From: Candidatus Woesearchaeota archaeon
Lineage (GTDB): Archaea > Nanobdellota > Nanobdellia > Woesearchaeales > GW2011-AR9
DNA: 64,000 nt
Direction: 5' to 3'
Assembly: GCA_016188115.1 (NCBI GenBank)
Contig: JACPIK010000002.1
Coordinates: 680,077-744,076 of the forward strand
The notes under the pieces are model-generated. The model was not told where the DNA came from. It was given only the letters and a program-made list of their open reading frames with translations, and did not search any database. Of the stretch, positions 6,102-51,830 are shown in pieces. A program made the translations under genes and the position numbers. Within the stretch, counting starts at the first letter, position 1; each line of letters opens with the position of its first letter.

Positions 6102-6121
6102 TTAAACAATAAATCAAAATT

Positions 6122-6535: not shown

Positions 6536-6707
6536 GTGTATTTCAAAGACCAAAGCCTTTATAAGTTTAGCTAAATAATATATCAAGAAAATTTATTAAT
6601 ATTTAAAGAATAAAATTAATATAAATAGAAAGAATGACAACAAATATAGATTTTTATCAACAAAAGAAGAATATTTAAAAACAAAAAGAGAATATTACCT
6701 ACTACGC

Positions 6708-13052: not shown

Positions 13053-13412
13053 AGTTCTTCCATTATTGGATTCATAGGATAACCAACAGAAAAAGTTCTG
13101 TTTAATCTAACTAAAAAAGAGAAGTTGGATCTAGAACTGACATTCAGAGGATTCTTTCTTTGGGTTCTTAAACTAGTGAATACTCTCTCCCATAGGTGAT
13201 ACCATGACAACTAAAAAAGAATATAATGTTGAAAACCAATATGGAGAATTCGTCAACGAGCTCCATGATGAAGATCGTGCATTCTTGCAGTTTATGGCTC
13301 GGCGACAACGATATTAATTCTTTCTTTTTTTCTAATAAAAGTAAATAATAAAGTAAACGGGAAAATAGTAAATATAATCAAAATATGAAACAACAAACCG
13401 AAAGAAAAATCC

Positions 13413-14537: not shown

Positions 14538-14540
14538 GGT

Positions 14541-15194: not shown

Positions 15195-15252
15195 GTTTGT
15201 GTATAACCCCTCAAAAAATAAACTATAACAAAAAAATAAAAAAAAGCAAGAC

Positions 15253-17166
15253 CTATTGGTCTTTACCTTTCTTCTTGCCAGCTGGCTTGTCAGAAGAGTG
15301 ACCTGCTTTCTCTTTAAACTCAGCGTCAACAACTTTCTCACCATGCGCATGTCCATGAACTTGATCTTCACCAGGCATACCGGCGTTCCCACCAGCAGCT
15401 TGTTGCGCAGCATTTGCATCTTGGTAAATCTTTGCGCCAATCTCGCCAACCACTTTGTTGAGTTCTTCGATAGCAGCATTAATAGCAGCAGCATCTTCGC
15501 CTTGACGAACTTTCTCAACGTGAGCAATTTTGTCCTCAATGCGCTTGCGTGTGCCATCATCAACTTTGTCTTTAAATTCATCAAGCACTTTCTTAGTTTG
15601 ATAGGCAACAGATTCAGCATTGTTTTGCGCTTCGATAAGTTCACGTTTACGTTCATCGTCAGCAGCATACTTCTCTGCTTCTTCACGCATGCGTTTCACT
15701 TCTGCTTCACTTAATGCACTTGAACCAGTAATCTTAATTTTTTGTTCTTTACCAGTTCCAAGATCTTTTGCGCTAACATGAACAATACCATTTGCATCAA
15801 TATCAAATGTGACTTCAACTTGTGGAACGCCACGAGGAGCAGGAGGAATTCCCATTAAGTCAAATTGACCAAGAGTCTTGTTGTCATGAAACATAGACCT
15901 TTCCCCTTGTCCAACTTTAATAGTAACTGCAGTTTGGTTGTCAGCAGCAGTGGAGAAGATCTGCGATTTTTTGGTAGGAATGGTTGTATTTCTCTCTATC
16001 AAACGAGTAAATACGCCACCCAAAGTCTCAAGACCTAAGCTTAGAGGCGTAACGTCAAGAAGCAAGATGTCTTTAATATCGCCAGACATAACTCCTGCTT
16101 GAATTGCTGCACCAATCGCTACAGCTTCATCAGGGTTAACAGATTTGTCGCCTTCTTTTCCAGTGAGTCTGCGTACTAAATCTTGAACACAAGGCATACG
16201 GGTTGAACCGCCTACAAAAATAACACGATTAATATCACCTTGTGTCATTTGAGCATCACGTAATGCATTCTTAACTGGAGCTTCCAATCGACGTAAAATA
16301 TCCGCAATTAAAGATTCGAAATGAGCGCGGGTTAATTCCTCTTTGATGTGTTTTGGTCCATGTTGATCAGCAGTGATAAAAGGGATGTTAATCTCAACTT
16401 TCATTTTTGAAGAAAGTTCAATTTTCGCTTTTTCTGCTGCTTCTTTAAGACGTTGCATCGCCGTAGGGTCGTGACGTAAATCAATACCTTGGGATTTTTT
16501 GAAACGATCCATGATATCATTCATGATACATTCATCAACATCATCCCCACCAAGGTAATTATCCCCGCTGGTTGCTTTAACTTCAAAGATGCCATCCCCT
16601 AATTCCAAAATAGAAACATCAAATGTTCCTCCTCCGAAATCAAAAACAAGGATAGTATGATCTTGTTCTTGTTTGTCAAGACCGTATGCAAGAGCAGCCG
16701 CAGTTGGCTCGTTAATAATGCGCAGTACATTCAAACCTGCAATTTCTCCTGCATTCTTAGTTGCTTGACGTTGAGAATCATTAAAATATGCAGGAACAGT
16801 AATAACTGCATTTTTAACTTCTTGACCAAGATAAGCTTCAGAATCACGTTTTAATTTCTGTAAGATCATAGCAGAAATTTGTTCTGGGCTATGAGGTTTT
16901 CCATCAATGGTAACTTTTTCATTTGTGCCCATTTTACGTTTAATGGAACGAATAGTACGAGTAGGATCAGTAATTGCTTGGTTACGAGCTACTTGACCTA
17001 CAACAACATCCTCATCTTTAATGTGAACAACGCTAGGAGTTGTTCTAGTTCCTTCTGAATTGGGGATAATTACGGGTTTACCTCCTTCAAGAACAGCAAC
17101 AGCTGAAAAAGTTGTACCTAAGTCAATACCGATCGTTGCGCCGGTTGTGGTTTTTTTGGTTGTCAT
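15253..17166 (-). CDS. dnaK: Chaperone DnaK (Hsp70)
   Basis: [22 protein letters not shown] and the full Hsp70 ATPase and substrate-binding domains. The probable start is MTTKK at 17166, with a GGAGG 8 nt upstream. The track ORF begins 15 nt earlier. Confidence 0.95.
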
Positions 17167-17233
17167 TATATTTTCCTCCATTAAATGGTATTTTTCTTGA
17201 TTTGTTTTTCTTAATCAAATTTTGATTACAATT

Positions 17234-17785
17234 TTACTTTGATTTTGTTTTACTAAGATCCTTCTCTGGATGAGACTTGCCAGGACCATCACTTACTTTT
17301 ACACGTGCAGCACGTAATACTTTTCCATGAAGCAAGTATCCTTTTTGAAATTCTTCAACGATAGTATCCACGGGTTCATCACAAGGCACTTTCATAAGAG
17401 GTTGATGATAGAGGGGATCAAACTTAGCCCCTAATGAATCCAACGCTACAACTCCACTTTTTTCTAAAGCAGAGAGCAACTGAGCGTATAATAATTCCAT
17501 CCCCTCTCGCACATCTTCTACTTTTTGAGTAGGATTCTTTAATGCAAGATGAAAAGTATCTAAAACTGGCAGCAGTTCAATGAGGAACTTTTTAAGTGCC
17601 ATTTGTTCAGCATCAGTTATACGTTGCGTAACTTGCTTACGATAGTTCTCAAAATTAGCTTGAGTACGTTGAAGCAAATCGGTAAGTTCTTCAACTTTAT
17701 CTTTGACAGGAGCCTCTTGCGTTGTGCTAGTAGCATCTGCATTTTCCGTTTTAACAGGTTCGTTTTGTTGATCTAAGTTCGACAT
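17234..17785 (-). CDS. grpE: Nucleotide exchange factor GrpE
   Basis: GrpE coiled-coil and C-terminal domain (LQRTQANFENYRKQ ... HQPLMKV). The track ORF extends to 18082 through the divergent regulator gene. The likely start is MSNLDQQ (17785), or MHSR at 17804. Confidence 0.8.
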   Translation of the reverse strand: MSNLDQQNEPVKTENADATSTTQEAPVKDKVEELTDLLQRTQANFENYRKQVTQRITDAEQMALKKFLIELLPVLDTFHLALKNPTQKVEDVREGMELLYAQLLSALEKSGVVALDSLGAKFDPLYHQPLMKVPCDEPVDTIVEEFQKGYLLHGKVLRAARVKVSDGPGKSHPEKDLSKTKSK

Positions 17786-17802
17786 GGAAGCTCTTGAATG
17801 CA

Positions 17803-17815
17803 TTTTATATATAAA
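17803..17815. promoter_or_regulatory. Palindromic TATA-like box TTTTATATATAAA, about 25 bp upstream of the grpE start
   Basis: An AT palindrome centred about 25 bp from the grpE ATG at 17785. Archaeal promoters carry BRE/TATA near -26. Confidence 0.4.
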
Positions 17816-17834
17816 CATTTCGCAAGGACAAACA

Positions 17835-17842
17835 TTTAAATA
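17835..17842 (+). promoter_or_regulatory. TATA-like box TTTAAATA for the divergent wHTH regulator (leaderless)
   Basis: Lies 23-30 bp upstream of the ATG at 17865. Confidence 0.35.
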
Positions 17843-17864
17843 GAAAAATACCCCTATCCCGCAT

Positions 17865-18269
17865 ATGACACAAAAAGTCACGATTCTGCGAATTCGCCGT
17901 GTTGCCACAGAAAACCTCAACCAAGATCTCCAGTGGTTTGGCTCATCATTAGGACTATTTAATCTGCGTGATAAGGATAGCAGTTGTTTTCGTGTATTTA
18001 TTACCCTGCTTAAGCGCGCTCGGACTTCCGACCTCATCACATCAGATGAAGTTGCAGAAAAATTAGATTTAAGTCGAGGCACCGTCGTACATCATCTGAC
18101 CAAACTTATGGATGCAGGAATAGTCATGCGAGTAAAAGGAGGATATGTACTGCGAGACAACAACCTGCAAAAAGTAATTCGCGATGTCCAAAGAGATATT
18201 GAAAACATCTTTACTGACCTAAACAAAGTAGCGAAAGAAATCGATGACCAGTTAGGTCAGAACTTCTAG
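17865..18269 (+). CDS. Winged-helix transcriptional regulator divergent from the dnaK operon
   Basis: ITSDEVAEKLDLSRGTVVHHLTKLMDAGIVMR is a classic HTH plus wing. Its position suggests it is the heat-shock operon regulator (inference). Confidence 0.5.
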   Translation: MTQKVTILRIRRVATENLNQDLQWFGSSLGLFNLRDKDSSCFRVFITLLKRARTSDLITSDEVAEKLDLSRGTVVHHLTKLMDAGIVMRVKGGYVLRDNNLQKVIRDVQRDIENIFTDLNKVAKEIDDQLGQNF

Positions 18270-18417: not shown

Positions 18418-19926
18418 ATGAAGAACCTCAAAGGATTGTTGCTTTTACTTTCATTCTTACTTATTGCAATCCAGATTATCCAGCTAAGTGTTGTCTTTAG
18501 TATAACTGGCGCAGTAACGGGTGGCACAGCAACAGTAGGATTATGCTACAATCACCAGCCTTCATTTTACAATCTTACGAATTATACCCTCCCCCATAAT
18601 GTTGCATTTAACTCAACCATTTATGCTAATGAAAGCGACAGCGATGCAGTTGCTTTTTTTGATAATACCAGCCTCTTTTTAATAAACAACAATACTGGCG
18701 TATTCTCATTCATACCCTCAATTTTAAATGTAGGCAACCACAGCATAGATATCACCATTCGTGACTATAATAGTTCCTGCGCATCGAATGTAAGCGAAAT
18801 ATTGCTTCTTACTATTAACAACTCGATCCCCTACCAAAATAGAACCATCCCTAATCAAACGTGGGAAGAAGATGTCACCCTCACCGGCATCAATCTTACC
18901 ACCTATTTTGCCGACTACGAAAACGACACACTTAATTTTACTGCCCAAATTGGACACAATATCACAGTAACTATTTCTAATTTTACGGTCACCATCGTTC
19001 CGAATACAGATTATTATGGCATAACCTGGATCGTGTTTAGAGCAAATGACAGCTTAGGAACTGCAACCTCAAATAATGTCACACTCAACATCACTGACGT
19101 AGCAGATTTTTGCGGAGATGCAGTGTGTAATGCAGATGAAAGTTGTTCATCATGTTCTGCTGATTGTGGCAGCTGTGGAGGATCAGGCAGTAGCGGAGGA
19201 GGAGGGGGCAGAGGATCGGGAGGAGCAGCAAGCCCGCGAGTAATAGAAGTGATACCACCAACCCCACCGCAAACAGAATGCAACCCATCTAAAAAGTGCG
19301 GAAATTGGGAACCAGCTTCATGCACAACCCAACCCCAAGAACGCAGTTGTATCGAAATTAAACCAAGCTGCACTGCTATTAAAACCATTGAAACCAGATC
19401 TTGTAATTGTATCCCTGACTGGCAGTGTTCAACGTGGGTTCCTGAACAATGTAACGCTTATCAAACACAACATAGAACCTGTGTAGATCGAAATGACTGT
19501 AACAAAGAACCATATCCTGATGACTCACAAAGCTGTGCTTCAGAATCAACCTACGCAGATTCCCAAGAAGCATTGATAGGACAAGCCATGTGGAGCAACC
19601 TTAAAAATAAAATTGGAAGCCTTACCAGAACAACCCCACTTCTACTCACCATAGTAATTATCTTTTGTGGAATCGGCGGACTCTGGATATGGCACCAACA
19701 CAAACCAAAAATTGCCTTTTGGAAATGTGTAGACACTAAAGAGATAGATACATCAAAATTTATCAGCAAATTCACAAAAGAACAATTAATTGAAATTACA
19801 TCAGAACAAGAAATAAAAATTGATACCTACGTTGAAGCAACCCGCAACAATAAAGTGAAAATACACATCCAAGCGCGTATCAAGGATCATAAAAACAATA
19901 AAACGTCTATTCAACGAGTAGAATAA
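18418..19926 (+). CDS. Surface protein with signal peptide, Cys-rich and Gly/Ser-rich segments, C-terminal TM
   Basis: Signal/TM LLLLLSFLLIAIQII. Dense N-x-S/T sequons. DFCGDAVCNADESCSSCSADCGSCGGSGSSGGGGGRGSGG linker. Cys-rich region CNPSKKCGNWEPASC... TM LLLTIVIIFCGIGGLWIW plus a cytoplasmic tail. Confidence 0.5.
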   Translation: MKNLKGLLLLLSFLLIAIQIIQLSVVFSITGAVTGGTATVGLCYNHQPSFYNLTNYTLPHNVAFNSTIYANESDSDAVAFFDNTSLFLINNNTGVFSFIPSILNVGNHSIDITIRDYNSSCASNVSEILLLTINNSIPYQNRTIPNQTWEEDVTLTGINLTTYFADYENDTLNFTAQIGHNITVTISNFTVTIVPNTDYYGITWIVFRANDSLGTATSNNVTLNITDVADFCGDAVCNADESCSSCSADCGSCGGSGSSGGGGGRGSGGAASPRVIEVIPPTPPQTECNPSKKCGNWEPASCTTQPQERSCIEIKPSCTAIKTIETRSCNCIPDWQCSTWVPEQCNAYQTQHRTCVDRNDCNKEPYPDDSQSCASESTYADSQEALIGQAMWSNLKNKIGSLTRTTPLLLTIVIIFCGIGGLWIWHQHKPKIAFWKCVDTKEIDTSKFISKFTKEQLIEITSEQEIKIDTYVEATRNNKVKIHIQARIKDHKNNKTSIQRVE

Positions 19927-23634: not shown

Positions 23635-26568
23635 CTAATCAAATTGGTTTTTCCAAGCAGCATAGCGAGCATAAATTGGACCGACATACACTAGTTCCAT
23701 ATAATCGCCATTTCCGATTTGTTTTCCTTTATAGGTTCTCACTCTAACATTCATCGCACTCTTAACCGCAGACCACGTTTTTTGACCCTGTGCAATACGA
23801 ATGTATCCATTTACCGCACCAGGACCATCATGATACGCTAAAATTGCTAATTTAATTTGATCTTCCAGTGCAGCGCCTTGATAATTTTGCAAAAGATTAG
23901 CGAATAATTTTGCTTGAGCTTGTATTGAAAGTTCAGGATTAAATCGCGCATCATTTTGTGGAGTGCACATATAGGTACCCTCTTTCCAGACCCTACCCCA
24001 TCTCGCAACTTCATTCATACATCCTTGCCTAGTTTCTTTCTCATTCGGTTCTAAATTTCCACAACACATAACAACTTGATTTGCCCCAAAATAGCTCTTG
24101 GCAGTTTTATAAGTAAATTGAGCCAGCCCAACTGCTCCCGCAGTACTAACTGCCCGAGTGCTAAATCCTGATTCTTTTGAAGTAACTGCTTTAAGTAAAG
24201 AAGGAGGCACATTATGTTCTTCACCATATTTTTTAAACCAAGTATCATATTTTTCTACATTATCCTCGGGAATATCAAAAATAGGTTTTGGACCATCATC
24301 TTCGTCAGCAACACTTGCCACAACAGGAGCAGGATACAATACTGCCCACGGCACAAAGCCAACACCAGTTTGATAGACATATTCCCCCGCAAGAATAAAC
24401 GGCGAAACTCGCCTCCACGCTTTATCAATATTTTTGACTGATTCAGAATACATCTCTGAAATCGCTTTGGTTGTCTCAGGAGCTGACTCACCACGCGGTT
24501 TAACAGACCCATAACCTTCTGAGCTAGGATCAAATGGTTCATCATCTGCAGGAGGAGTTAGATACTCTTGATAGAGCAGCGCATATATTGCTCTTGCCCA
24601 AAGTTTTCCACCAAGCCCGCCTTGTCCAGTATAATGGATTCCATCTCCTCCCGTATATTGAACAGCATCCGTAAGAGTATTAGCATCAATAAAACGACAA
24701 CGAGATTCGACAAGAACTTTAAGAGCTCGATTGATTCCCAACGTATCTACTTTTCTATTAGTTGAAGCTGGCGCGCCTACCCATACACATTTTTTACCTG
24801 ATGAAACAACCTTCTCTACCAGCGAGTTAATATTTGCTGCTTGATTATTAACTCCCTGTGCAGTCAAAAAGTTTGTTCCTAAAGAGATTATAACCATTTC
24901 GGGATTAAATGCAGACAATTGATTTTCAAAATTAAATGGAGTCTGAATAAGATTGCTTGGTGTCTGGCTACCAACCAAGACTAATGATCCTGCCGGATTC
25001 GGTCCAGTTGGTTTCCCCCCACTATCTCGCTTTTCATTACACACTTTATAATTTACTTTATCAAAATTACTTGCAGCTGCCCCTCCACACGCATACGTTT
25101 GAGCTGCAACATTTTTTTGAATTAGTAATCTGTGTAACTCTTTTCCATACGCACCAACAGAATGAGAATCGCCAATGTGCAGTACACTTGAAGGACCAGC
25201 AATCGAAGAACCACTGTATTGTGACATATCCTCTTCTAAAGGATTCGCATTCTTTGCCAGCCAGTCATCAACGCACTCTTGATCATCTGGATCGCAGATA
25301 TCGGCAAGATATGCTTCAGTTTCACTACTAGTAGCAGCGATCGTTTCCTCAGTGTATATATCTTGTATCATTTCACGATAAATCGCCTTACAATAATAAT
25401 ATCCCCCACAAGCATAGTCATCACAATCAACACCACCATCCCCATTATCATCAACACCATTAGTACAATCTTCTACACCATCTTGACTCGAAGATCCTTC
25501 ATCTGAATCCGAAAAGAGACCTGAGTTTAACTGACGATAAATTGCTTTACAATAATCATCTTCACGACAAGCATAATCCTCACAATCAACACTGCCATCC
25601 TCATTATCATCAGCATTATTAGTACAATCTTCCACAGGGATCTCTTCTTCAGTAGGCTCAGCAAGACCTCCCGTCTCTTCATCAACTGCCCCATCCCCCG
25701 CAGCAGCAGCAACAGGATGTACTGCCGGAGCAGAAGTAGGAGAAGAAGGTTCATCAGGAACTAATTCAATTGTATAAGTAAGATCAGAACCACTATTTGC
25801 ATCCGTTGCCGTAGCACCCGCTGGTACATCATTACGTGCATACATCTCATCAGTCGCTGGAGCAGGAGCAGAAGTTGATTCATCAGAAGGATCTAATAAA
25901 ACGTCAATCGTGCCATCTGGATTTACCCGAGCACCATTATTGAAACCTTCCTCACCAGCAGAATCAGCAGGAACAGAAGGATCAGCCCGACACAATAATG
26001 CGCCATTACGAAAAACATTCTCATCAGCAGTATAAAGAACATATAGCCCTTTCACCATGTGTGTACGTGAATCATAAAACCCACTAATTCCGCGAACTTG
26101 AATCGATTGAGTACGAAGATCACAAGTAAATTTATGTTCAGTATAAGCTTGTGGTAGCGTTGATTGGATAGGTACACTAGGAGTTTCGCCACATACCGCA
26201 GCAACTGAAACAATCCCTTCAACCCCATTCTTAGTCGCAGCAATAGCACTAAGACCATTCATAAATCTACCAGCACATCCAGAATCACGTAATACCAATT
26301 CCTCATTACCAATTATAACATTAGATTGATCCTGACAAAATAAACCTAAAGCATCAATAAAACCTGATCGATCTACACTTGCTTGAATCCCCAACGCTGC
26401 TTGTCCATCAGGACAAAGTAATGTAAACGGTTGACCTACCATACTTCCAAGAAGACGACTGCCTGTCTCCAAAAATCGAACATCATTCTCTGCCAAACCA
26501 CCCACTACTAAGATTAACAGTGTAAATAAAACCAAAAATCCAAACCGTTTCATTCCAACACGTTTCAT
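23635..26568 (-). CDS. Secreted multi-domain hydrolase: signal peptide, N-terminal beta-rich domain, Cys/Asp-rich Ca-binding-like repeats, SGNH/GDSL esterase domain, C-terminal family-1 lytic transglycosylase (SLT, GH23) domain
   Basis: Signal FGFLVLFTLLILVVGG. Two copies of EDCTN..DDN.DG.VDC.DYAC...YYCKAIYR. SGNH blocks VLHIGDSHSVG, IISLGTNF, GGDGIHYT. SLT catalytic motif ESGFSTRAVSTAGAVGLAQF and AYHDGPG. Last gene of a four-gene overlapped operon. Confidence 0.7.
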   Translation of the reverse strand: MKRVGMKRFGFLVLFTLLILVVGGLAENDVRFLETGSRLLGSMVGQPFTLLCPDGQAALGIQASVDRSGFIDALGLFCQDQSNVIIGNEELVLRDSGCAGRFMNGLSAIAATKNGVEGIVSVAAVCGETPSVPIQSTLPQAYTEHKFTCDLRTQSIQVRGISGFYDSRTHMVKGLYVLYTADENVFRNGALLCRADPSVPADSAGEEGFNNGARVNPDGTIDVLLDPSDESTSAPAPATDEMYARNDVPAGATATDANSGSDLTYTIELVPDEPSSPTSAPAVHPVAAAAGDGAVDEETGGLAEPTEEEIPVEDCTNNADDNEDGSVDCEDYACREDDYCKAIYRQLNSGLFSDSDEGSSSQDGVEDCTNGVDDNGDGGVDCDDYACGGYYYCKAIYREMIQDIYTEETIAATSSETEAYLADICDPDDQECVDDWLAKNANPLEEDMSQYSGSSIAGPSSVLHIGDSHSVGAYGKELHRLLIQKNVAAQTYACGGAAASNFDKVNYKVCNEKRDSGGKPTGPNPAGSLVLVGSQTPSNLIQTPFNFENQLSAFNPEMVIISLGTNFLTAQGVNNQAANINSLVEKVVSSGKKCVWVGAPASTNRKVDTLGINRALKVLVESRCRFIDANTLTDAVQYTGGDGIHYTGQGGLGGKLWARAIYALLYQEYLTPPADDEPFDPSSEGYGSVKPRGESAPETTKAISEMYSESVKNIDKAWRRVSPFILAGEYVYQTGVGFVPWAVLYPAPVVASVADEDDGPKPIFDIPEDNVEKYDTWFKKYGEEHNVPPSLLKAVTSKESGFSTRAVSTAGAVGLAQFTYKTAKSYFGANQVVMCCGNLEPNEKETRQGCMNEVARWGRVWKEGTYMCTPQNDARFNPELSIQAQAKLFANLLQNYQGAALEDQIKLAILAYHDGPGAVNGYIRIAQGQKTWSAVKSAMNVRVRTYKGKQIGNGDYMELVYVGPIYARYAAWKNQFD

Positions 26569-27122
26569 TCGACCCTAAACCTCTTGACTAATGAAATTCG
26601 CTTATCTAATAACGGATTTTCCACCATGATTTCTACTTGATATTCACCCAGATCAGGATTATCTCCAAGCGTAAAATAATCTGCAAACGCCGCAGGTTCA
26701 TTTTCTTTTGTAGATTCGTGTTCTAACAGATAGGAATTTTTCTCTTCCAAATTAAGAATAATATTGCCCTGAGGATTAACAATGCGATAATTTCGCACTA
26801 ACATGATTTGATTATCATATGTACTACTCTGCACTAAGAACCGTAAATAGATTTCATCGCCTTTTGCAAACACATCGGTTTTTTGATAACAATTAAACTT
26901 CACATCAACATACTTGCAAAAATCAAACTGACGAATCTGAAGGTCACCGCCGCGACCTAAAGGAATAAATTCTGTATTAAGAAGACTAACCTGTTGCGCT
27001 TGATCTGAACTTTCCTCAAATGCACCAACATAAATTAACAGTAACATGATCCCTGTTGTAATCGCCGCAACAATCGCAATCACCGCCACTTGTACCAGAA
27101 CTGAACCTTTGTTGGAGATCAT
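26565..27122 (-). CDS. Small N-terminally membrane-anchored extracellular protein (operon member)
   Basis: TM VLVQVAVIAIVAAITTGIMLLLIYV. Start and stop overlap the flanking genes by 4 nt each. Confidence 0.45.
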   Translation of the reverse strand: MISNKGSVLVQVAVIAIVAAITTGIMLLLIYVGAFEESSDQAQQVSLLNTEFIPLGRGGDLQIRQFDFCKYVDVKFNCYQKTDVFAKGDEIYLRFLVQSSTYDNQIMLVRNYRIVNPQGNIILNLEEKNSYLLEHESTKENEPAAFADYFTLGDNPDLGEYQVEIMVENPLLDKRISLVKRFRVE

Positions 27123-30100
27123 GATGAGCCCCCCCCGGAATTACATTGTGCTTCCAAGATTGGTTTAGTCGCTGCACTTGCTGCAGAAATTTGAAAGTTA
27201 GCTAGTTCTACTCCATCACTAATTTTACATGCTTTTGCTTCGGTTGCGCTAATACATTTATACGCATAAACAGAATCAGTAATAGGCAGAGTATACCCCT
27301 TAGCACCACAAAGAGATGAATCTGCTAAAGCCCTCTTCGCAGCAGCCACTTTCCCTTCATTACAATATTTCACAACACCTTTGTTAAACTTCTTATCTAC
27401 CTCACATAAATACGCATAGATTTTGTGAAACTCATCTGTATTTTCAAGATCGTCATCATCCGTCTCTTCACTTCCTTTATCATAACCCGCAGCTATATCA
27501 CCAGAATAATCCCGCAAGAAGAAATATTTCAAAAGATTATCAATATTCACAGCGTACGTTTCAATACTGCCTTGTTTTTGTCCTTTCATAATCAACGATA
27601 AAATTTCATAATACAATGTCATCACGTTACTCATGTCGCCTTGTAATTTCTGCAATTCCTCGGTCGCAATCTCATGAACACGATCATAATTTTCTTGCAT
27701 AAAGAAATCATGAACTCCGCCAAGTTCAGCAATAGCCATTGGTTGACGCTGAATACGCACAAGTTGAACATGACGATTTTTACCAATTGCCGGTTGTTTA
27801 GTAACTTGTGTTGCAAACGCACAGCCCTTGCTTTCATCCTGATCTAATAACTCATACACTACCTGAACATCTTTCCAATTATTCTGTGTTGCATAGACAC
27901 TTCTCTTCGACACTCGATAAGTACATTGTAATGGTTGCGCAGAAAAGTCTGGTTGACCAATCACTTGACTAATCACAAACCCGTCTGCATTAAATTGTGC
28001 CGCGTTGGCATTTTCTAATGACATAGCTGCAACACCATCTTTTTGCAGCAACCCGCCAGTGATAGAATACCCATTACGTGAAGAAGTAGACGTTAACGAC
28101 GCATCAGCAGGAACAGTAACTTGCACAAGAGTGTTTTGCACCTGAGTAAACGAGAAGACAAACTCATTACGATCTTGCACGGTTTCAGGAGACCCAAAAT
28201 AATTTGGCTGATTTGGACATCCCGCATTACTTGGAGCTCCATTCACTTTTTCTAATTGATTTGACATTCCGCCAAACATTGTCTCCGTTACTGGACCTAA
28301 TACATCTTCTTTGAGATATGTTCCTTGCACATTCTCTGGAATGACCGCAGCCCCCACTACTTCAGGAACACCTGGAAGATTTCGCACCGTACGTCGTAAA
28401 CACATCCCTTTGCCATTCAAAGCAAGATTAACACGTACACGAATATCATCATGTTCACTCGCAACAAAAATATTAGGAGTGCGACAATCAACCCATTTAT
28501 CATTGCGTTTATCATAACATTCCATATACGGAGATTCAATCGCTGCTTGACCAGTACCGAACAGACTTGCTAATTCAGGACAATCATACCGACCCGACAC
28601 AGCATCAACAGTACAAGTAGCAACACCAGGAGGAGTAACATCAGTAATTGGTTGATACCATACTCCTTTACGACCAGAAAGAACCTCTTTATCAAAACAT
28701 AATTCTGGATTTTCACCAGGATCTAATTCCAGTTCTACTTTAACGTGATCGTAACGGAAATGAGAATCGACACGTTGAGGTGTTTCAATAGGCACACTAA
28801 ACATTCTTCCTCCTTGAATGTTCATACTCGTATCAATAATTTTTTCACGTTCACCAGCAAATTCGGGTGCTTTGCTCGCGCGTAAACAATCGCAACCTTT
28901 GCCATTACACGATTCATCCACACCAAAAAATCCTCGATCTTCCGGACCAATGCATTCCAAAGACACTTGTGAACGAGTAATCTTACAACCAGGCATAACA
29001 ATAACACCAATTTCATAATTATGAATGGCTGTTTCTTTTGCAGGGTTAAATGTACTTAACTCACGAAATGCAGGAGCAACCACAACAGAACTATGTGTTG
29101 GAAACGCATATGCCGCATCTAGTAAAAAGTCCTCACTAAATAAAGGAAAATCAAACCCAAATGCTGCCATACACATTGATTGCGCAAATCCCTGTGCGCC
29201 ACCTTGGAAGTAATTATTTAATTGCGCATTACCATAATCACTTTTGATATCATTCACCGATGATTGCAGCGCACTCGACATCCCTTGAGTGCCTTCCTTA
29301 AGCACAACGCCAATATCTTCAAACGCACCGCCTTTTCCAATATCATCAAAGTTTGAAGGTGTACAGCTTGTAAGCATCGCTGCAACTCCTTTATACACTA
29401 AACCACAGACATTCTGACTAAACCAGGTCTTACACGCACCCGCATCATATAATCCAGTATATTTCGCTTCAACTAAACAATTACGTAATCCAACTAAGAT
29501 ACTCTCAATCATCACCATGTGTTTAAGAATACCTGAGGTGCACATTGTTTGCACGGATTCAATAAGACCAGCATGAGGATCTACTTTTGCAACCTGTTTA
29601 TCCTCACCACGAATATAATCAATCAAATAATCCTGACCAAACGCGCCAGAAAAATCACGTCCATGATAATAGCGAATCGTTGGATAATTTGTTCCAAACT
29701 TGCCATTTGATTCTTTAAAGATACGTTCCTCTCGATAGAACCACTCTTCCTCAACACCGGGTTTGTATTTTCCAATTTCTACAGCAGTGCGTAAACTACG
29801 GTCTCCACTTGGTTCTATTGACGCATCCGGTTTCTTACCCATACATACACATTGATAGAATTCAGGCTCTTTATTTTCAGTAAATGATTCAATAAAACAA
29901 TCTTTAGTATATCCCGTGGCATACCGTTCAGTTTTATCAACAGTACCTAATTTTTTACCATTTTTATCATATAACTGAGTAATTCCACTTTCATCTTTAC
30001 CTTCTTTATAACAGCCTTTTCCTAAATGTCCCAGATCAGAATCAGTTTTAAACTCACCACCATACCTTCCTTTATAGGGGTCAGTACAAGCTTCTTGACA

Positions 30101-32878
30101 AGAAATATCTCTTCCAGCAATAAGACCCTCAGATCCAGGGGGTTGATAAACAACAAGTCTTTCAGATTTTTCTAGCCCACCTAATAATTTATTCGCGGAA
30201 CGAAGATGAAATACGCCTACTTGTTCATCACGAGGAACTTGTTCACTAGGATCCATAAAAAAGACAGTATCACTTCCATCTCCTTTAGTCCAACATTTTG
30301 CAACATCTTTAGTGTCTATAGTTAAACCAGTAGAATCTGCTTTCAATCTTTCCTGACAATTCTCCAATGGAATCAATGGTGCACCACGTCCCGTCACCGC
30401 GCATGCATTCTGCTCCTGTATGACATTATTAATCTGTTCTTCAGTCTTATCCTCTGTCCATCCAGCAGGAACAGCACGGCAAAATGCGCGATCACACGTC
30501 CAACGATATGCTGTATCCAACGCTGCTTCAAATTTCCACGCCGTTGTCGTCGAATCACACTGCTCATCAAGAGTATGCGCTTTTGTGTTAGGACCATCAA
30601 CAAGACCCCCATCAGCCTCATACCAATCTACAACCGCTTGAGGTAAATCTTTTTTATATTGTTCATCAGCTTTGATAAGAGCATACCAATTCTCCAGCGT
30701 TTCACGCATATACAAATTATTTTGTTTAAGCGGACATTTACCGCTGCTATCAAACCCTTCCCCTTTCTGCTTCGCTTTTGCTTCAGGTTTTGCTAATTCA
30801 AAATATGATTCTAAACGTGATGTTGCCACACGCACACCACGACTTACCCATCTTCCTAAGAAAGACGCAATACAACTTACTCCCGTAATCAAATAGGCTG
30901 TTTCGACATACTCACGCGCAGTTTGTAATTGGGTAATTGTCCAATTTAATGCTGCAACACCATCATTCGCAATAAAGTCCGGAATTAAATCAGCGCTATC
31001 AACAGGAATATCCACAAAATACCCAATATCTTGACAAGTAGTTTGGGTTTTAGTTCCACTCCATTTATCCTCTCCACCCTCGGCTTTGCCTTCCCGTTCT
31101 TCGTATTCAATAGAAATCTTAATAGGAAACATTAATTGCCGTTTCTTAAAATCATTCCAAAAATCGTCTTCTTTCTTACTAAATTCCGCAGCCCCAATCA
31201 GTGTCCACGTTGCATAGACCGCTTCCTCACCTTTCAATGGTCGAGTAGAACCCGGCATAAGTTGACAACCAAGACCAAATTTCTCATCTTCTTGCATTGA
31301 TTGCGTACACGCTTTCTCAATACGCACATTCTTTATTCTATAAGCTCGTTCATAGACTTCCCCACTTTTATCAAGTACCGGCGTGCCTTGACCTAAATAA
31401 TTAAACTTAAAGACTGCTTGAATTTCCTGACGCCCTTCATCAAGTAATGTTGGATTCAACGCATACGGTGTTTGGAATTTAACCATATTCTCAACACCAA
31501 ACGCCAGATCGCCCGACGCGCAGGAATTAACATTAACCGTTCGCTGCCACGAAATTGATTTACCGCTTTCGTCTTCCGCAATTAAAAAGACATGATATGT
31601 TGCCTGTTGTGCTGCAGCAACTGCTTCCTGAATAGGAAAAATAGTATATTCTAACAACTGGATGGGAACTTCTCGAGGTGTTAATTTTTTAGCCGTAAGT
31701 TGATCACGCAAAGATAAAGAAAAATCAACATCTTTAAAGCGAAACGACCCATTTTGATCTGCTTCGACAACTTTTACTGCACGACTAAAATCAGGATGAA
31801 ATTCGTATCCTTGCGGTCGATAAATGTACAAGTACACTTTTGCTCCAGGTTCTGTTTCTCCTGAAATGGAAGATTCAGCTCGACCTTCATAAAATTGATA
31901 TCCCTTCTCTATCTCTGCGCGTAACGTGGGAGCGCGCGTATCCGCTTTCACTAAAAACTGCTTCTCGCTTTGCCATCCAGCCCGATCCGCTGCCACAACC
32001 ACAATAGTATTATCGCCTTCTTGTAAGCTTACTTCCAAAGAAAAGAAAGTAGTAGGAGGACTTTGCGCAACAGAACGATTGTTAACAAATATTTCCACGC
32101 TTGAATTTTCGCTAATTGTCCCATTAAGAACGATCCGATTCTCATTTGCAAATTCTTCAATAGGAATCAATTGAACCACAGGTTTGTGAGTATCGGCAAA
32201 AACCACAGTAGTAGTATTAGCTTTATTGCCAAAGGCATCAGTTGCTTCAATAAAAATAAGATTTTCTTTTTCTGCATCAAGTGTAATTCCACTCACTTTG
32301 AACTCACCATCAGTAACACCAGAACTTGCACCAACTGCCTGCGTGCTTGCGCCCAATCGACCATTTACAAGTACCCGTACACTTGCTCCATTCTCTGCTG
32401 TTCCATTAAAAGAAAGAGAAGTACCTTGGATAACTTCCGGTAGCACGACCACCACTCCTGAAGTAGAAAGATCCTGCGCTGCTGTTTGAAATGAATAATA
32501 ACTTCCCTGCGCATCATCAACCACATCACCGCTTTGCACTTTATATTGATACGTCGTTTGGGAACTAAGACCAGACAAAGGCAATCGATGCTCAATAACC
32601 TCATCAGCATCACCACGTCGCACAAACTCAGCAGGATCAGTGCCAAACTCAACAAAACTATTTGCCGCTTCATCAGTTTCCCATGCAAGTATTGCGCTAT
32701 CCTGCGTAACATTTTCAGCACGCACATGAGATATCTCAAGCGCAGAAACCAACGTCGTATTCACCAGTAAAAAGAGCACACCAAGTACCATTATCTTCCA
32801 AGCAGTACTACTAACGTAACTACCCCTGTAACTTCTTGCGTGACTACTCGTGTGTTTTGTTTTTACCATGTTAATCAT
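27119..32878 (-). CDS. Giant (1919 aa) secreted/surface protein with N-terminal fn3-like and Ig-like repeats and a large Cys-containing C-terminal region
   Basis: Signal-anchor IMVLGVLFLLVNTTLVSA. fn3-like ISHVRAENVTQDSAILAWETD...TTYQYKVQS. Repeated beta-rich segments. No catalytic motif recognised. Confidence 0.6.
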   Translation of the reverse strand: MINMVKTKHTSSHARSYRGSYVSSTAWKIMVLGVLFLLVNTTLVSALEISHVRAENVTQDSAILAWETDEAANSFVEFGTDPAEFVRRGDADEVIEHRLPLSGLSSQTTYQYKVQSGDVVDDAQGSYYSFQTAAQDLSTSGVVVVLPEVIQGTSLSFNGTAENGASVRVLVNGRLGASTQAVGASSGVTDGEFKVSGITLDAEKENLIFIEATDAFGNKANTTTVVFADTHKPVVQLIPIEEFANENRIVLNGTISENSSVEIFVNNRSVAQSPPTTFFSLEVSLQEGDNTIVVVAADRAGWQSEKQFLVKADTRAPTLRAEIEKGYQFYEGRAESSISGETEPGAKVYLYIYRPQGYEFHPDFSRAVKVVEADQNGSFRFKDVDFSLSLRDQLTAKKLTPREVPIQLLEYTIFPIQEAVAAAQQATYHVFLIAEDESGKSISWQRTVNVNSCASGDLAFGVENMVKFQTPYALNPTLLDEGRQEIQAVFKFNYLGQGTPVLDKSGEVYERAYRIKNVRIEKACTQSMQEDEKFGLGCQLMPGSTRPLKGEEAVYATWTLIGAAEFSKKEDDFWNDFKKRQLMFPIKISIEYEEREGKAEGGEDKWSGTKTQTTCQDIGYFVDIPVDSADLIPDFIANDGVAALNWTITQLQTAREYVETAYLITGVSCIASFLGRWVSRGVRVATSRLESYFELAKPEAKAKQKGEGFDSSGKCPLKQNNLYMRETLENWYALIKADEQYKKDLPQAVVDWYEADGGLVDGPNTKAHTLDEQCDSTTTAWKFEAALDTAYRWTCDRAFCRAVPAGWTEDKTEEQINNVIQEQNACAVTGRGAPLIPLENCQERLKADSTGLTIDTKDVAKCWTKGDGSDTVFFMDPSEQVPRDEQVGVFHLRSANKLLGGLEKSERLVVYQPPGSEGLIAGRDISCQEACTDPYKGRYGGEFKTDSDLGHLGKGCYKEGKDESGITQLYDKNGKKLGTVDKTERYATGYTKDCFIESFTENKEPEFYQCVCMGKKPDASIEPSGDRSLRTAVEIGKYKPGVEEEWFYREERIFKESNGKFGTNYPTIRYYHGRDFSGAFGQDYLIDYIRGEDKQVAKVDPHAGLIESVQTMCTSGILKHMVMIESILVGLRNCLVEAKYTGLYDAGACKTWFSQNVCGLVYKGVAAMLTSCTPSNFDDIGKGGAFEDIGVVLKEGTQGMSSALQSSVNDIKSDYGNAQLNNYFQGGAQGFAQSMCMAAFGFDFPLFSEDFLLDAAYAFPTHSSVVVAPAFRELSTFNPAKETAIHNYEIGVIVMPGCKITRSQVSLECIGPEDRGFFGVDESCNGKGCDCLRASKAPEFAGEREKIIDTSMNIQGGRMFSVPIETPQRVDSHFRYDHVKVELELDPGENPELCFDKEVLSGRKGVWYQPITDVTPPGVATCTVDAVSGRYDCPELASLFGTGQAAIESPYMECYDKRNDKWVDCRTPNIFVASEHDDIRVRVNLALNGKGMCLRRTVRNLPGVPEVVGAAVIPENVQGTYLKEDVLGPVTETMFGGMSNQLEKVNGAPSNAGCPNQPNYFGSPETVQDRNEFVFSFTQVQNTLVQVTVPADASLTSTSSRNGYSITGGLLQKDGVAAMSLENANAAQFNADGFVISQVIGQPDFSAQPLQCTYRVSKRSVYATQNNWKDVQVVYELLDQDESKGCAFATQVTKQPAIGKNRHVQLVRIQRQPMAIAELGGVHDFFMQENYDRVHEIATEELQKLQGDMSNVMTLYYEILSLIMKGQKQGSIETYAVNIDNLLKYFFLRDYSGDIAAGYDKGSEETDDDDLENTDEFHKIYAYLCEVDKKFNKGVVKYCNEGKVAAAKRALADSSLCGAKGYTLPITDSVYAYKCISATEAKACKISDGVELANFQISAASAATKPILEAQCNSGGGSS

Positions 32879-32894
32879 TTAAGATTGAAATTGT

Positions 32895-34937
32895 TTAAGA
32901 TTGAACCTCAGGAAGAGGGACTGCATAGCTATATTGCGCTAAATCCCCCATTAATTCTAATATCCCCTCCGTTGAGCTATCTGTTGGGACTAATGTGTGA
33001 ATTATAATTTTGTGAGCTTCTTCAAGTTCATCCCATGCTACTGACCAATTTCCTTTATAGCCGCCGATAATTTCACCGCCAACTTCTCCTGCTTCTCCTT
33101 TAAGTAAGAGTACTTCCAAAGGATATGTAAAATCCGCTTCTGCTAAAAATTCAATATTTTGTTGCGATTGTATATGAGGATCAAGCGTCGCAGAAATAAC
33201 TGCTTTTGATTCATGAAAATGCGTTGCGAAGAGATCGCGTTTTGTACGATTTGCATCATAATATAGTGAAACAAACGCCGTAACCTCATCATCTAATGCA
33301 ACTGCGGGACCAACCTGAGTAGGAGACGTAAACGAATGAGTAACGATCTCAATATTTGAAATGGGAAATTTTTGGAGAGGAATTAAGTCAAATTCAACTT
33401 CTGCATCAGGCGTCGTAATGACTCGTTTCCAATCTTCTTTATACCCTTCTTTAGTCGCGCGAACAATCGCGCCGCCGCATTGAGGCACATTAGTACGCGC
33501 CGCCGCAACATCACCCATACCGGCAAAATCATACTGAGTTGAAACAATATTATCGCATTGATAACGCAAACAAGAGTAAGACATCTCAACATTCTCCAAT
33601 GGAACACGCCAATATACCCCTGTTTGCCAATTCTCTACCAATTTATAGGTCTTCATCATCAAAGGAACTGAACCACTTTGACAAAATTCTTCATCACCAT
33701 ATGCCCCAAAGACTCCAGAAACAGCTTGTGTAGGCACCGCATTTCTATTCGCGATATTTCGCGCAAGATGTACTGTAAATGCGGTTTTAAAATCATAACC
33801 CGTCGTTTCATCACGAACATGAACCATAACCGGATAACTCACATCATAGGTAAATTTCCAAGATTGCAAACAGAAAAATGACAAGAGAGCATTTTTCTGC
33901 CCTAACTGATTGCTACGTAAAACTCGACCACTTCGCGGAGTAACATCAAACGAAAAAGGATACGAATCATCAAACGAAAAAACCACTGACACATCATCAT
34001 TAAACAAAATATCATCGCCAATATCCCAAACATAATGATTAGTATAATATGATAAATCTTCAGGATATTCAACAATATCAGTGCCTTTTACCTGCAAACG
34101 CGCAAGGTTATATCGCAACAAATCTTTCAGAGTTTGTTTAACAGTATCAATCTCCCAGCGTTTTGTCCCGCAACTTACTTCAAATCCCGCAACAGGCACA
34201 TCAGGATGTTCTAATGCAATCAAATCCTGTGTCAAATCTTCTAATTTAAGATCACGCAGTTCTCGTTCTACAATTCGCCGAGAAAGATCATAAACACGTT
34301 TAAGTTTGATGTCAGATTCTGCAACGTGATCCACCACTTCAGTAACAACTTCTCCGTTTTTGTCCCGAATGACTAAATGCCATCGCACATTAAAAATGAT
34401 TTTGCTCTCAACAAGTTCTGTGTTAACTTTTACAAGATCCCTCTCTTCAATTTGATAAGTATCGAGTCGATCAGGTTCAAACACACACCCATGAAGTTTT
34501 TGTTCAATTTCCCGATCAAGTTGCATTTTGATTTCATCTAACGTAGGATACATCGTTTGCGTGCCATATGCCCAATATGGAACTAAAGAGAGAGGAGAAG
34601 TACGTAAATGTAAATTAGCATTCTCTGCAATCGAAGAAGGTACAGAAAGATATCCGCCCTGCGCTCCTAAACGGCGAACCGCATCTTCTCCAATAGATTC
34701 AATACAAGAAGTAATGAGTGATTCCACGCGACTTTTCTCCGTGGGAATAATTTCTCCAGGTTTGAAGGTAACTATTTCAGTTTTAATAGCAATAATTAAG
34801 ATAATTGCAAGCAACGCCACTATCCCCAGAATAATAAAAATTGTTACTTGACCCTTCCGTGAACCAGAAAACAAAATAGGAGAAGACCTAATAGTATAGT
34901 TACTACTAAAAACACGATCCAACCTCTTTTTTTGCAT
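32895..34937 (-). CDS. N-terminally membrane-anchored 680-aa extracellular protein (first gene of the surface operon)
   Basis: TM VTIFIILGIVALLAIILIIAI. A TATA-like element lies 15-30 bp upstream. Confidence 0.5.
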   Translation of the reverse strand: MQKKRLDRVFSSNYTIRSSPILFSGSRKGQVTIFIILGIVALLAIILIIAIKTEIVTFKPGEIIPTEKSRVESLITSCIESIGEDAVRRLGAQGGYLSVPSSIAENANLHLRTSPLSLVPYWAYGTQTMYPTLDEIKMQLDREIEQKLHGCVFEPDRLDTYQIEERDLVKVNTELVESKIIFNVRWHLVIRDKNGEVVTEVVDHVAESDIKLKRVYDLSRRIVERELRDLKLEDLTQDLIALEHPDVPVAGFEVSCGTKRWEIDTVKQTLKDLLRYNLARLQVKGTDIVEYPEDLSYYTNHYVWDIGDDILFNDDVSVVFSFDDSYPFSFDVTPRSGRVLRSNQLGQKNALLSFFCLQSWKFTYDVSYPVMVHVRDETTGYDFKTAFTVHLARNIANRNAVPTQAVSGVFGAYGDEEFCQSGSVPLMMKTYKLVENWQTGVYWRVPLENVEMSYSCLRYQCDNIVSTQYDFAGMGDVAAARTNVPQCGGAIVRATKEGYKEDWKRVITTPDAEVEFDLIPLQKFPISNIEIVTHSFTSPTQVGPAVALDDEVTAFVSLYYDANRTKRDLFATHFHESKAVISATLDPHIQSQQNIEFLAEADFTYPLEVLLLKGEAGEVGGEIIGGYKGNWSVAWDELEEAHKIIIHTLVPTDSSTEGILELMGDLAQYSYAVPLPEVQS

Positions 34938-34967: not shown

Positions 34968-35152
34968 GCTTGTGCTACCGCCCCGTCTATAACTTTACCT
35001 ATTTTCAACAAATATATTTACCCAGTTCGATTAAAAAAAACAGCATTTAACGAAAGTGCATTTAACATTAAGAATTTTCCTAAAAATGATTAAAAGGGAC
35101 ACAAGAAGAGTATAGAAACAATAGTCTCTTACACAAAATCATCCGAAATATC

Positions 35153-35971
35153 TTATCCTATGTATGTTACATCTTCATCTATATGTTTTGCACCCGGAAC
35201 AGAACCAGACAACATTTCAGAGGTCCATTCCTGCGTTCGTTTAAGCAGCTCTTGTTCCAACGCCACTACATCTTGAGAAAGTTTAGTAACATTAATTTTG
35301 TAAGAATATTTAGTGTTAATAACGCGAATCAATTCACGCGCGCCCGTAACACCCACATACATGGGATGAAGATGAGTCTCTGCTAAAAGAGCAACCGCAG
35401 TTACACCTCGCCGTTTGCCTAAACCCAATAAAACTCCAGAGACGCCAATAATTGGTCCAACGACCTTAAAAATAGACTTTTCCACACCTAATTTTTTTGC
35501 AGTATATTCTTTGAACAACGCCAGATCATTCGCCGTGCAAAAGACTTTGGGCTCTTTAGGAGTTTCTTGCAAACCAATTCCGCCTAACGCAATAACATGA
35601 GAACCGCCAAACTGCTGTACAATTCGCAAAATTTCTTCACAAAAAGTATAACAACCTTCTTCATCAATAGGTTGGATATCCCCCACTAAAATGAGTAAAT
35701 CTCTTTTACCAGATTGAGGTGTGAATTTCTTGTAATAGAGTTCAATTTTAGGTTCATCGATGAGATTATCTTCATTTACAAACACAGAATGAGGAAATTT
35801 ATGAGAGAAAAATGAATACAATTTGACAGCTTTTAACTCCTCAACAAAAAAATCAGCCGTGATTTTACCCACATTACCAATACCGGGTAACCCTTCAATA
35901 AAAACAGGATTAGATAATTTAGGGAGAACTTTAACTTCTTGCACAATCTCCCATTTTGTAGACATAAACAT
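35153..35971 (-). CDS. PAC2-family (proteasome assembly chaperone-like) protein
   Basis: The N-terminal IEGLPGIGNVGKI motif is characteristic of the PAC2/DUF75 family. Confidence 0.5.
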   Translation of the reverse strand: MFMSTKWEIVQEVKVLPKLSNPVFIEGLPGIGNVGKITADFFVEELKAVKLYSFFSHKFPHSVFVNEDNLIDEPKIELYYKKFTPQSGKRDLLILVGDIQPIDEEGCYTFCEEILRIVQQFGGSHVIALGGIGLQETPKEPKVFCTANDLALFKEYTAKKLGVEKSIFKVVGPIIGVSGVLLGLGKRRGVTAVALLAETHLHPMYVGVTGARELIRVINTKYSYKINVTKLSQDVVALEQELLKRTQEWTSEMLSGSVPGAKHIDEDVTYIG

Positions 35972-51793: not shown

Positions 51794-51830
51794 ACAGAGC
51801 AAACGAAAATCAAAAAACAGGTAAAATACT

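Follow-up and report, generated by a model that had tools for sequence, protein, structure and literature searches.

A conserved operon of Woesearchaeota joins two predicted membrane-anchored proteins and a giant secreted protein to a polymorphic gene for secreted enzymes

In a stretch of 64,000 nucleotides (nt) from the genome of a Candidatus Woesearchaeota archaeon (GenBank assembly GCA_016188115.1, contig JACPIK010000002.1; the whole stretch is called the window below), four genes on one strand encode proteins of 680, 1919, 185 and 977 residues (genes 1 to 4; the product of gene 2 is called the giant; Table 1). They form an operon that is kept in roughly a hundred species of tiny Woesearchaeota and that most likely builds an extracellular scaffold, anchored in the envelope, which displays a secreted enzyme against bacterial peptidoglycan; this reading is held with slightly more belief than doubt. 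The structure of the operon is real and conserved, its promoter and translational coupling being held across some 50-70 species-level genomes. The fourth gene is a polymorphic cassette, the sole constant part of which is a linker-flanked motif of about 50 residues, and its products seem, from their domain content, to be directed mostly against bacterial peptidoglycan. Genes 1 and 3 are predicted to encode prepilin-like anchored proteins, which are not filed here as pilins. The operon, the three partner families and the fourth-gene motif appear to be undescribed.

Operon structure and its conservation in relatives

The four open reading frames (ORFs), all on the minus strand, lie where a first-pass annotation of the window had placed them, with the ATGA start/stop overlaps that it had described between genes 2 and 3 (27119-27122) and between genes 3 and 4 (26565-26568); genes 1 and 2 are separated by a gap of 16 nt. 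The single TATA-like box that it had noted upstream of the first gene is likewise present, in a spacer of 215 nt, and forms part of an element with the consensus GCAYAAsCTTTATAAA, which 63 of 72 orthologous loci carry 31 nt 5' of the ATG of gene 1. At this distance from the starts of the other genes, a TATA-like octamer was seen in 0/76 loci for gene 2, 2/69 for gene 3 and 1/48 for gene 4; since the element recurs at one spacing before gene 1 and is nearly absent before the other genes, it is more than a chance match. The spacing of 31 nt between promoter and ATG implies a leaderless or near-leaderless operon mRNA. To judge by its sequence, a run of eight T that separates this promoter from PAC2, the next gene 5', could plausibly serve as an archaeal terminator for PAC2 transcription. 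Oligo-T terminators are not enriched 3' of the fourth gene (10/48, against a background of 0.18), so that the 3' end of the operon is undefined; the Fpg gene, 47 nt 3' of gene 4, could be co-transcribed in this genome. A search of the window against Rfam gave no match.

Relatives were sought by scanning one genome per GTDB species; 116 matching stretches were found and 80 loci fetched, in which genes were assigned by tblastn and ORF extraction. The same synteny recurs in these genomes, the order 680-1919-185 being nearly invariant over the 80 loci, and no scattering of the genes was seen. Gene 1 lies 5' of the giant in all 71 loci with enough contig, and is adjacent to it in 69; gene 3 lies 3' of the giant in 64 of 66 loci (adjacent in 61); and a fourth gene with the motif is present in 52 of 55, with no other ORF between it and gene 3 in 47. 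Intergenic distances are mostly -8 to +50 nt; from gene 3 to gene 4 the distance is -4 nt (the ATGA overlap) in 24 of 48 loci and does not exceed 21 nt in 46. Seeming second copies within loci are frameshift fragments. What comes next in the loci is enolase, RelA/SpoT, GAPDH, RsmB or Fpg, so that the module ends with the fourth gene. The earlier description had the operon end in a murein hydrolase; the conserved core, however, consists of three genes, and the fourth slot is polymorphic, an SLT domain being found in 15 of 50 relatives.

Each of the four products has one N-terminal hydrophobic segment and none elsewhere. The first-pass annotation had called these segments signals or anchors throughout; those of the 1919- and 977-residue proteins look like cleavable Sec signals, however, and only the 680- and 185-residue proteins, both with prepilin-like N-termini, are likely to stay anchored. 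Cysteine counts are even in all four proteins (8, 44, 2 and 24 for genes 1 to 4) and nearly all of the cysteines are conserved (8/8 in gene 1, 39/44 in gene 2, 2/2 in gene 3), as is to be expected of disulfide-bonded extracellular proteins.

Table 1. Features of the operon and of its 5' surroundings in the window
Feature	Residues	Window positions	Strand	Basis or remark
Gene 1 (680 aa)		32895-34937	minus	ORF
Gene 1, KGQVTIF of the class III motif	28-34	34836-34856	minus	
Gene 2, giant (1919 aa)		27119-32878	minus	ORF
Giant, fn3-like, Big_6 and Glucodextran_B-like Ig domains	51-313	31940-32728	minus	Pfam
Giant, 71-residue helix	634-704	30767-30979	minus	
Giant, helical bundle	1114-1239	29162-29539	minus	
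Gene 3 (185 aa)		26565-27122	minus	ORF
Gene 4 (977 aa)		23635-26568	minus	ORF
Gene 4, signal peptide	1-27		minus	Sec-type
Gene 4, unique N-domain	after signal peptide		minus	
Gene 4, two acidic double-disulfide repeats	~300-395		minus	NCBIfam
Gene 4, SGNH esterase domain	458-662	24583-25197	minus	catalytic blocks
Gene 4, family motif	698-747	24328-24477	minus	motif hidden Markov model (HMM)
Gene 4, SLT lytic transglycosylase domain	770-977	23638-24261	minus	Pfam
BRE/TATA (transcription factor B recognition element and TATA box) promoter element GCACAAGCTTTATAAA		34960-34975	minus	TATA part starts 31 nt before gene 1 ATG
T8 run		35033-35040	minus	between upstream PAC2 gene and promoter
PAC2 proteasome chaperone gene		35153-35971	minus	directly 5' of the operon

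The polymorphic fourth gene

In the window, the SLT domain of gene 4 matches Pfam PF01464 with 68.6 bits (cut-off 21.3; E 4.6e-19), and the same stretch is matched by NCBIfam lytic transglycosylase models, below their full-length cut-offs; a string search locates KESGF (residues 798-802), GLAQF (814-818) and AYHDGPG (911-917), which we take to be the catalytic Glu-Ser, GLxQ and AYxxG motifs of family 1 lytic transglycosylases. The SGNH domain reaches 22.4 bits with PF13472, below the cut-off of 32.9; proteins at the orthologous position reach E 2.6e-18, and blocks I (GDSH, 466-469), III (GTN, 564-566) and V (DGIH, 642-645) are found in the window protein. By these motifs gene 4 appears to carry both an intact SGNH and an intact SLT catalytic site, and is predicted to cleave murein. 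Among solved structures, the closest relative of the SLT domain by sequence is gp16, the internal-core lytic transglycosylase of phage T7 (E 4e-4); its best PHROG matches are endolysins and lytic tail proteins, and it is the only part of the operon matched by PHROGs.

Among the relatives, the first ORF 3' of gene 3 falls into one single-linkage cluster in 49 of 55 clustered loci (window included). The members of this cluster range from 315 to 1361 residues, and similarity to the 977-residue protein of the window is detectable in only 20 of the 60 others. When 50 fourth-gene proteins were scanned against Pfam, GDSL_2 was found in 16 of them, SLT in 15, FGE-sulfatase in 13, DUF2272 in nine, Metallophos in five, Peptidase_M23 and Peptidase_M15_4 in four each, Exo_endo_phos (EEP), Amidase_2, Phage_lysozyme2 and DUF218 in three each, Polysacc_deac_1, Glucosaminidase and Hydrolase_2 in two each, and Peptidase_M74 in one; the domain architectures vary from species to species. 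No Pfam family occurs in more than 16 of the 50, whereas the motif, obtained by iterative HMM search, is present in 60 of 60 fourth-gene proteins. It spans about 50 residues with the consensus C..xQRCxEIDxVWxxI...VWD...GW..F.EVYP, follows closely on the signal peptide or else separates catalytic domains, and is flanked by linkers rich in S, T, P and Q. When all loci and the window were scanned in six frames, 66 matches to it were obtained in 59 sources, all of which are 3' of the triad of genes 1 to 3 and on the same strand. All 60 fourth-gene proteins carry a Sec-type signal peptide and no further hydrophobic or transmembrane (TM) segment.

The same six-frame scan yields two motif matches per locus in seven loci (L011, L025, L032, L040, L043, L054 and L060). 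Where these were checked at ORF level, they hold tandem fourth-gene paralogues with differing catalytic domains, like effector arrays.

The two anchored proteins

The product of gene 1 starts with a leader of about 28 residues, followed by the class III (prepilin-type) motif RKG/QVTIF at residues 27-34 (the slash marks the cleavage site). Orthologues share a near-invariant [KR][GA]QVT[IV]FIILG after a leader of this length. The distant relatives begin M.KRGQ[IV]T.FII.G, with the short basic leader that is typical of archaeal class III signal peptides. A FlaFind-type test, requiring [KR][GA], a FlaFind-type pattern at positions +1 to +4 and a hydrophobic stretch near the N-terminus, is positive for 57 of 69 gene 1 orthologues and for 106 of 134 distant relatives (median cleavage position 6); among the controls, it is positive for none of 20 giants and for one of 60 fourth-gene proteins. 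The leader of the Woesearchaeales proteins (34854-34937 in the window, minus strand; loci L001-L080) is unusually long and is conserved as M.KKR..., that of distant relatives having 4-6 residues.

An AlphaFold2 model of gene 1 (predicted local distance difference test score, pLDDT, 86.3; predicted template modelling score, pTM, 0.53) shows a TM helix at residues 27-55, then alpha/beta domains and, at about 424-651, transthyretin/CnaB-like beta-sandwiches. Gene 1 has no match in Pfam, in PHROG or, with a family-alignment profile, among PDB sequences, and none of the 280 matches of a homology search carries a Pfam domain. The family is large: a profile search of 1.84 billion representative proteins returns 6,860 clusters at E <= 1e-3, and 959 at E <= 1e-30.

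Gene 3 encodes a short basic N-terminus, the sequence NKG followed by a hydrophobic helix, and an ectodomain of about 140 residues with one conserved cysteine pair. Its N-terminus is reminiscent of bacterial pilins in sequence: [KR][GA] before a hydrophobic helix is found in 49 of 69 orthologues, with E or Q at +5 in 37 (E in most orthologues, Q in the window protein), and the strict archaeal pattern is seen in just 3 of 69. No family match was obtained for gene 3 in Pfam, NCBIfam, PHROG or PDB sequences. A comparison of the 185- and 680-residue families with hhalign gave a weak N-terminal match (probability 19%), and homology between the two is not claimed.

The giant

The giant corresponds, at 100% identity, to HYV86_03855, an NCBI protein of a Candidatus Woesearchaeota archaeon, encoded on a contig of 1.47 Mb. 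It starts with a Sec signal peptide (residues 1-46, ...VSA/LEIS) and has no membrane anchor. Its description in the first-pass annotation as a giant fn3/immunoglobulin (Ig)-repeat protein fits the N-terminal fifth only, where the fn3 and Ig domains are found; the bulk of the protein is a cysteine-rich core of about 1,400 residues. A model of residues 451-1650 (pLDDT 80.9, pTM 0.63) comprises beta domains, a helix of 71 residues, a helical bundle and further beta-sandwiches; the bundle is the best-conserved part of the protein, at 50-60% identity. This core is modelled with confidence and has no structural relative in the PDB; among PDB sequences, searched with a family-alignment profile, only the Ig/fn3 stretches find matches, and the remaining residues, about 1,600, have no family match, nor is there a match in PHROG. 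The Pfam, NCBIfam, PHROG and PDB searches thus agree with the earlier remark that no family is recognised for the 680- and 185-residue proteins and for most of the 1919-residue one. Homologues of the giant number about 96, are mostly full-length and share 34-64% identity with it; they belong without exception to metagenome-assembled genomes labelled Woesearchaeota, Nanoarchaeota or 'archaeon'.

Distant relatives and the origin of the module

Four distant gene 1 loci, two of them labelled Candidatus Woesearchaeota by NCBI, were examined for their wider context. A gene 1 homologue is followed directly by a homologue of the giant (1811-2052 residues; split into 1109 and 916 residues in one locus) in all four, and the fourth-gene motif is found in none of them; the pair of anchor and giant is therefore the old core of the module, and the slot for wall hydrolases looks like an addition in the clade of the window.

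One of these four loci, from a woesearchaeotal genome (L081, positions 60-17507; GCA_018221105.1), holds a co-directional cluster of nine genes followed by a gene 1/giant pair. The cluster includes a gene 1 paralogue of 778 residues, a cysteine-rich protein of 1054, a protein of 480 with two gene 3-like domains, and proteins of 169, 605 and 251 residues, the last with multiple TM segments; the apparatus thus seems to have paralogous versions. Another of the four, L082, encodes shorter paralogues (265-271 residues) with only the N-terminal domain of gene 1.

Proposed function and its alternatives

In the arrangement favoured here, N-terminal helices would keep the 680- and 185-residue proteins in the archaeal membrane, perhaps once a prepilin peptidase has processed them; the two proteins would hold the anchorless giant, the fn3/Ig domains and disulfide-rich core of which, with a helix of about 10 nm, would project from the cell. 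The hydrolase, itself anchorless, would dock onto this scaffold through the conserved motif. The 185-residue protein would be the prime candidate for its docking partner; the tight translational coupling with gene 4 makes gene 3 the first candidate receptor. Lytic transglycosylases cannot act on O-acetylated N-acetylmuramic acid, and in bacterial systems SGNH esterases such as Ape1 lift this block. The enzyme of the window, which combines an SGNH esterase with a lytic transglycosylase, may work in the same way: the esterase would strip the O-acetyl groups, which would leave the glycan strands of a bacterium touching the archaeon open to cutting by the transglycosylase. The purpose might be to attach to and breach a bacterial host or prey, or to harvest wall material; the phosphoesterase and nuclease domains of some alleles would fit either the breaching of a living host or the scavenging of wall debris. 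Archaea have no murein, and an immunity gene would therefore not be needed; this fits the downstream genes (Fpg, enolase, RelA/SpoT and GAPDH), among which no immunity-like gene is found.

From gene order and domain content we infer that the four products form a stoichiometric complex and that this complex makes host contact; both ideas go back to the first-pass annotation, and the polymorphic hydrolase slot makes them more specific and testable. A bolder form of the proposal is tentative, and doubted more than believed: anchor and giant may together be an extracellular machine that has not been described before and that is widespread in Woesearchaeota sensu lato, with a dockable, polymorphic arsenal of murein hydrolases recruited in Woesearchaeales. 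Archaeal episymbionts of bacteria, or predators on them, would then use it as an organelle for breaching the host wall, and it would have no counterpart by homology in the known secretion, pilus, S-layer and cellulosome systems.

Several findings weigh against the display of a wall-cutting enzyme on an anchored scaffold. The docking role given to the motif is wholly conjectural, and the copy of the motif in the window is divergent, without the usual cysteine pair. FGE-sulfatase, metallophosphoesterase and EEP domains, which occupy the fourth slot in some relatives, are not wall hydrolases; and the core genes occur without a hydrolase gene in distant lineages, so that their primary role need not involve murein. 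As to the prepilin-like anchors, no curated pilin or archaellin model of Pfam or NCBIfam matches genes 1 or 3, even at E 0.1-1, and no prepilin peptidase, pilus ATPase or platform gene was found among the ORFs of the 64-kb window scanned with Pfam or in the related loci examined.

The giant might instead be the main envelope protein of Woesearchaeales, of the surface-layer (S-layer) type, with the 680-residue protein as its membrane stalk, in the manner of SlaA and SlaB, and the hydrolase as a scavenging exo-enzyme tethered to the envelope, like the STABLE protease on tetrabrachion. This seems rather unlikely. The anchor-giant pair is single-copy and lies among housekeeping genes in every relative examined, the giant is Sec-secreted with N-terminal Ig/fn3 domains, and the S-layer protein of DPANN archaea is yet to be determined (bioRxiv 10.1101/2023.10.27.564410), all of which would suit such a protein. 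But the S-layer proteins of archaea as a rule show little conservation beyond the genus (bioRxiv 10.1101/2023.10.27.564410), whereas the giant keeps 34-64% identity and 39 of its 44 cysteines across the group; its N-glycosylation sequons are not enriched (9 observed, 10.3 expected); long helices abound in its core, for which the solved S-layer proteins provide no match; the resemblance to SlaB is at the level of generic beta-sandwich domains only; and translational coupling to an enzyme gene would be strange if the giant were made in the quantities of a lattice protein. The first-pass annotation had raised the possibility that the giant would turn out to be an ordinary S-layer protein; it falls into no known S-layer family, and the pair has no sequence or fold relationship to a known S-layer protein. 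It is improbable, too, that genes 1 and 3 encode the minor pilins of a fibre resembling a type IV pilus, the machinery of which is encoded elsewhere, and the giant its non-pilin tip adhesin, by analogy with the priming complex of minor pilins and PilY1. The layout of the operon, with a large Sec-secreted protein encoded between two pilin-like genes, would agree with this, as would the prepilin-type signal that gene 1 shares with its relatives, the E at +5 by which gene 3 resembles bacterial pilins, the short paralogues of L082 with the gene 1 N-terminal domain only, and microscopy of pili-mediated contact between ultra-small cells and hosts, as cited in PMC9938205. However, an ectodomain of 650 residues is far above the usual size of a pilin, a break is predicted at residues 56-66 of the helix that follows the motif, in place of one long alpha-1, pilin and PilY1 models do not match, and the genes for pilus ATPase, platform and peptidase are absent from the ORFs and loci scanned.

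That the four genes have no common function, and that an adhesin, two membrane proteins and a free secreted lysin act independently after a historical accident of co-transcription, would fit the lack of the fourth gene in distant lineages that keep the anchor-giant pair. Against it stand the order, orientation, overlaps and single promoter, which are kept among relatives only 34-50% identical, and the motif, which is found solely after the triad; we consider it very improbable. An origin as a viral or mobile remnant, such as a tail or entry module with a virion-associated lysin, has a practically negligible probability: the best matches of the SLT domain are indeed to phage proteins (T7 gp16 in the PDB, endolysin and lytic tail families in PHROG), but they are limited to this domain, genes 1 to 3 match no PHROG, the same housekeeping neighbourhood recurs in dozens of species, GC content is flat, and no integrase matches among the neighbouring ORFs scanned, flanking repeats not having been searched for.

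Relation to known systems

Large extracellular SLT proteins of Woesearchaeota and Pacearchaeota have been noted before, and proposed to bind and degrade bacterial walls (fam00969; Castelle et al., 2021, PMC8204110); that work also noted a module of 51 lineage-specific families without known function, and a 'vampiristic' scenario has been built on the large SLT proteins (Vigneron et al., 2022, PMC9723730). In both studies these proteins are read as signs of an interaction with bacteria. Gene 4 resembles these proteins in being a large secreted archaeal GH23/SLT protein. The difference is that the SLT protein was treated alone in those studies (PMC8204110, PMC9723730); here it is one allele of an operon slot defined by a motif. 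For cultivated Nanobdellales, electron cryotomography shows a large attachment organelle, the proteins of which are unknown (bioRxiv 10.1101/2024.05.04.592509), and candidates for their S-layer protein are merely proposed (bioRxiv 10.1101/2023.10.27.564410). In the literature on the pili, lytic transglycosylases and co-cultures of these archaea, no description was found of the operon, of the anchor-giant pairing, of a prepilin-like signal on a protein of 650 residues or of the motif; this coverage is incomplete and the result is an absence of evidence only. Nor was a report found of a cultivated Woesearchaeote, of a known host, or of the source of what the small genomes cannot make.

In kind, the operon resembles enzyme-display and contact systems; its parts are without detectable relatives. 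With the cellulosome it shares secreted anchorless enzymes with swapped catalytic domains and one small linker-flanked module, encoded beside a giant non-catalytic secreted protein and membrane anchors. The motif would play the part of the dockerin, a resemblance that is functional only: no cohesin or dockerin is among the Pfam matches of the 50 fourth-gene proteins or of the giant, there are one or two enzymes per locus, and the substrate would be murein rather than the plant cell wall. If docking is true, the operon would encode an archaeal, murein-directed counterpart of such enzyme-display systems. For the tethering of an enzyme, the complex of tetrabrachion and STABLE protease in Staphylothermus marinus is a comparison system. 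From SlaA and SlaB of Sulfolobales the present pair differs in an anchor that is N-terminal and prepilin-like, not C-terminal, and in a giant that is cysteine-rich, helix-containing, well conserved and not sequon-rich.

Genes for prepilin-type N-termini around a large gene for a Sec-secreted non-pilin recall the type IV minor-pilin/PilY1 tip complex, and a large non-fibre ectodomain with a class III signal, as in gene 1, recalls the Sulfolobus bindosome. Both differ from the operon, the products of which match pilins, PilY1 and binding proteins neither in sequence nor in fold, and which has no gene for an assembly ATPase, platform or peptidase nearby. Polymorphic toxin and effector loci, as in type VI secretion systems and contact-dependent inhibition, and also the virion-associated hydrolases of phages, share with the fourth gene a constant part joined to shuffled lytic domains (SLT, M23, M15, amidase, lysozyme), and with the seven double-motif loci the tandem paralogues; in contrast to polymorphic toxin loci, there is here no immunity gene and no homology to known trafficking domains, and the motif is N-terminal or interdomain rather than fixed in place.

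The idea that Woesearchaeota live on bacteria has rested mainly on isolated SLT genes, and the locus turns this hint into a defined, testable genetic module. It also adds three large unannotated protein families, one of them with thousands of clusters, and the motif HMM provides a marker for lytic cargo in metagenomes.

Chromosomal neighbourhood and other features of the window

The PAC2 proteasome chaperone gene lies directly 5' of the operon and Fpg directly 3'; the other neighbours in the window, archaeal housekeeping genes like these two, include tRNA-Leu, MPG glycosylase, VIT1, GatD, TFB, LonB, DnaK, DnaJ and GrpE. GC content is level across the region, no integrase was matched among the neighbouring ORFs scanned with Pfam, and the operon is a chromosomal locus, not an island. 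PAC2 is immediately 5' in about 45 of the 80 related loci, a conserved linkage of a cytoplasmic housekeeping function with surface genes.

The window contains further genes for exported proteins. A second overlapped operon of surface proteins (6708-13052, plus strand) encodes a protein of 172 residues with a helix-turn-helix of the Sigma70_r4 type, one of 1531 with three Laminin_G_3 (ConA-like lectin) domains, and one of 413 that belongs to no known family. Candidate adhesins or envelope proteins are an exported Big_9/cadherin-like protein of 502 residues (18418-19926, plus) and, at 50249-52862 (plus), an exported FixG_C/NPCBM_assoc-like protein of 514 residues followed by a DUF2393/WxLIP-like one of 343. 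A protein of 231 residues with a C-terminal thioredoxin domain (5406-6101, plus) could be an extracytoplasmic thiol-disulfide oxidoreductase for cysteine-rich exported proteins.

A cluster of bacterial-type DnaJ, DnaK and GrpE genes occupies 13413-18082 (minus); a GTG-started ORF of 381 residues without a family match (14541-15686) overlaps the 3' end of dnaK, and its start is probably mis-called. Near the beginning of the window, 2488-3396 (minus) encodes a protein of 302 residues with an N-terminal domain of the MazE/AbrB type.

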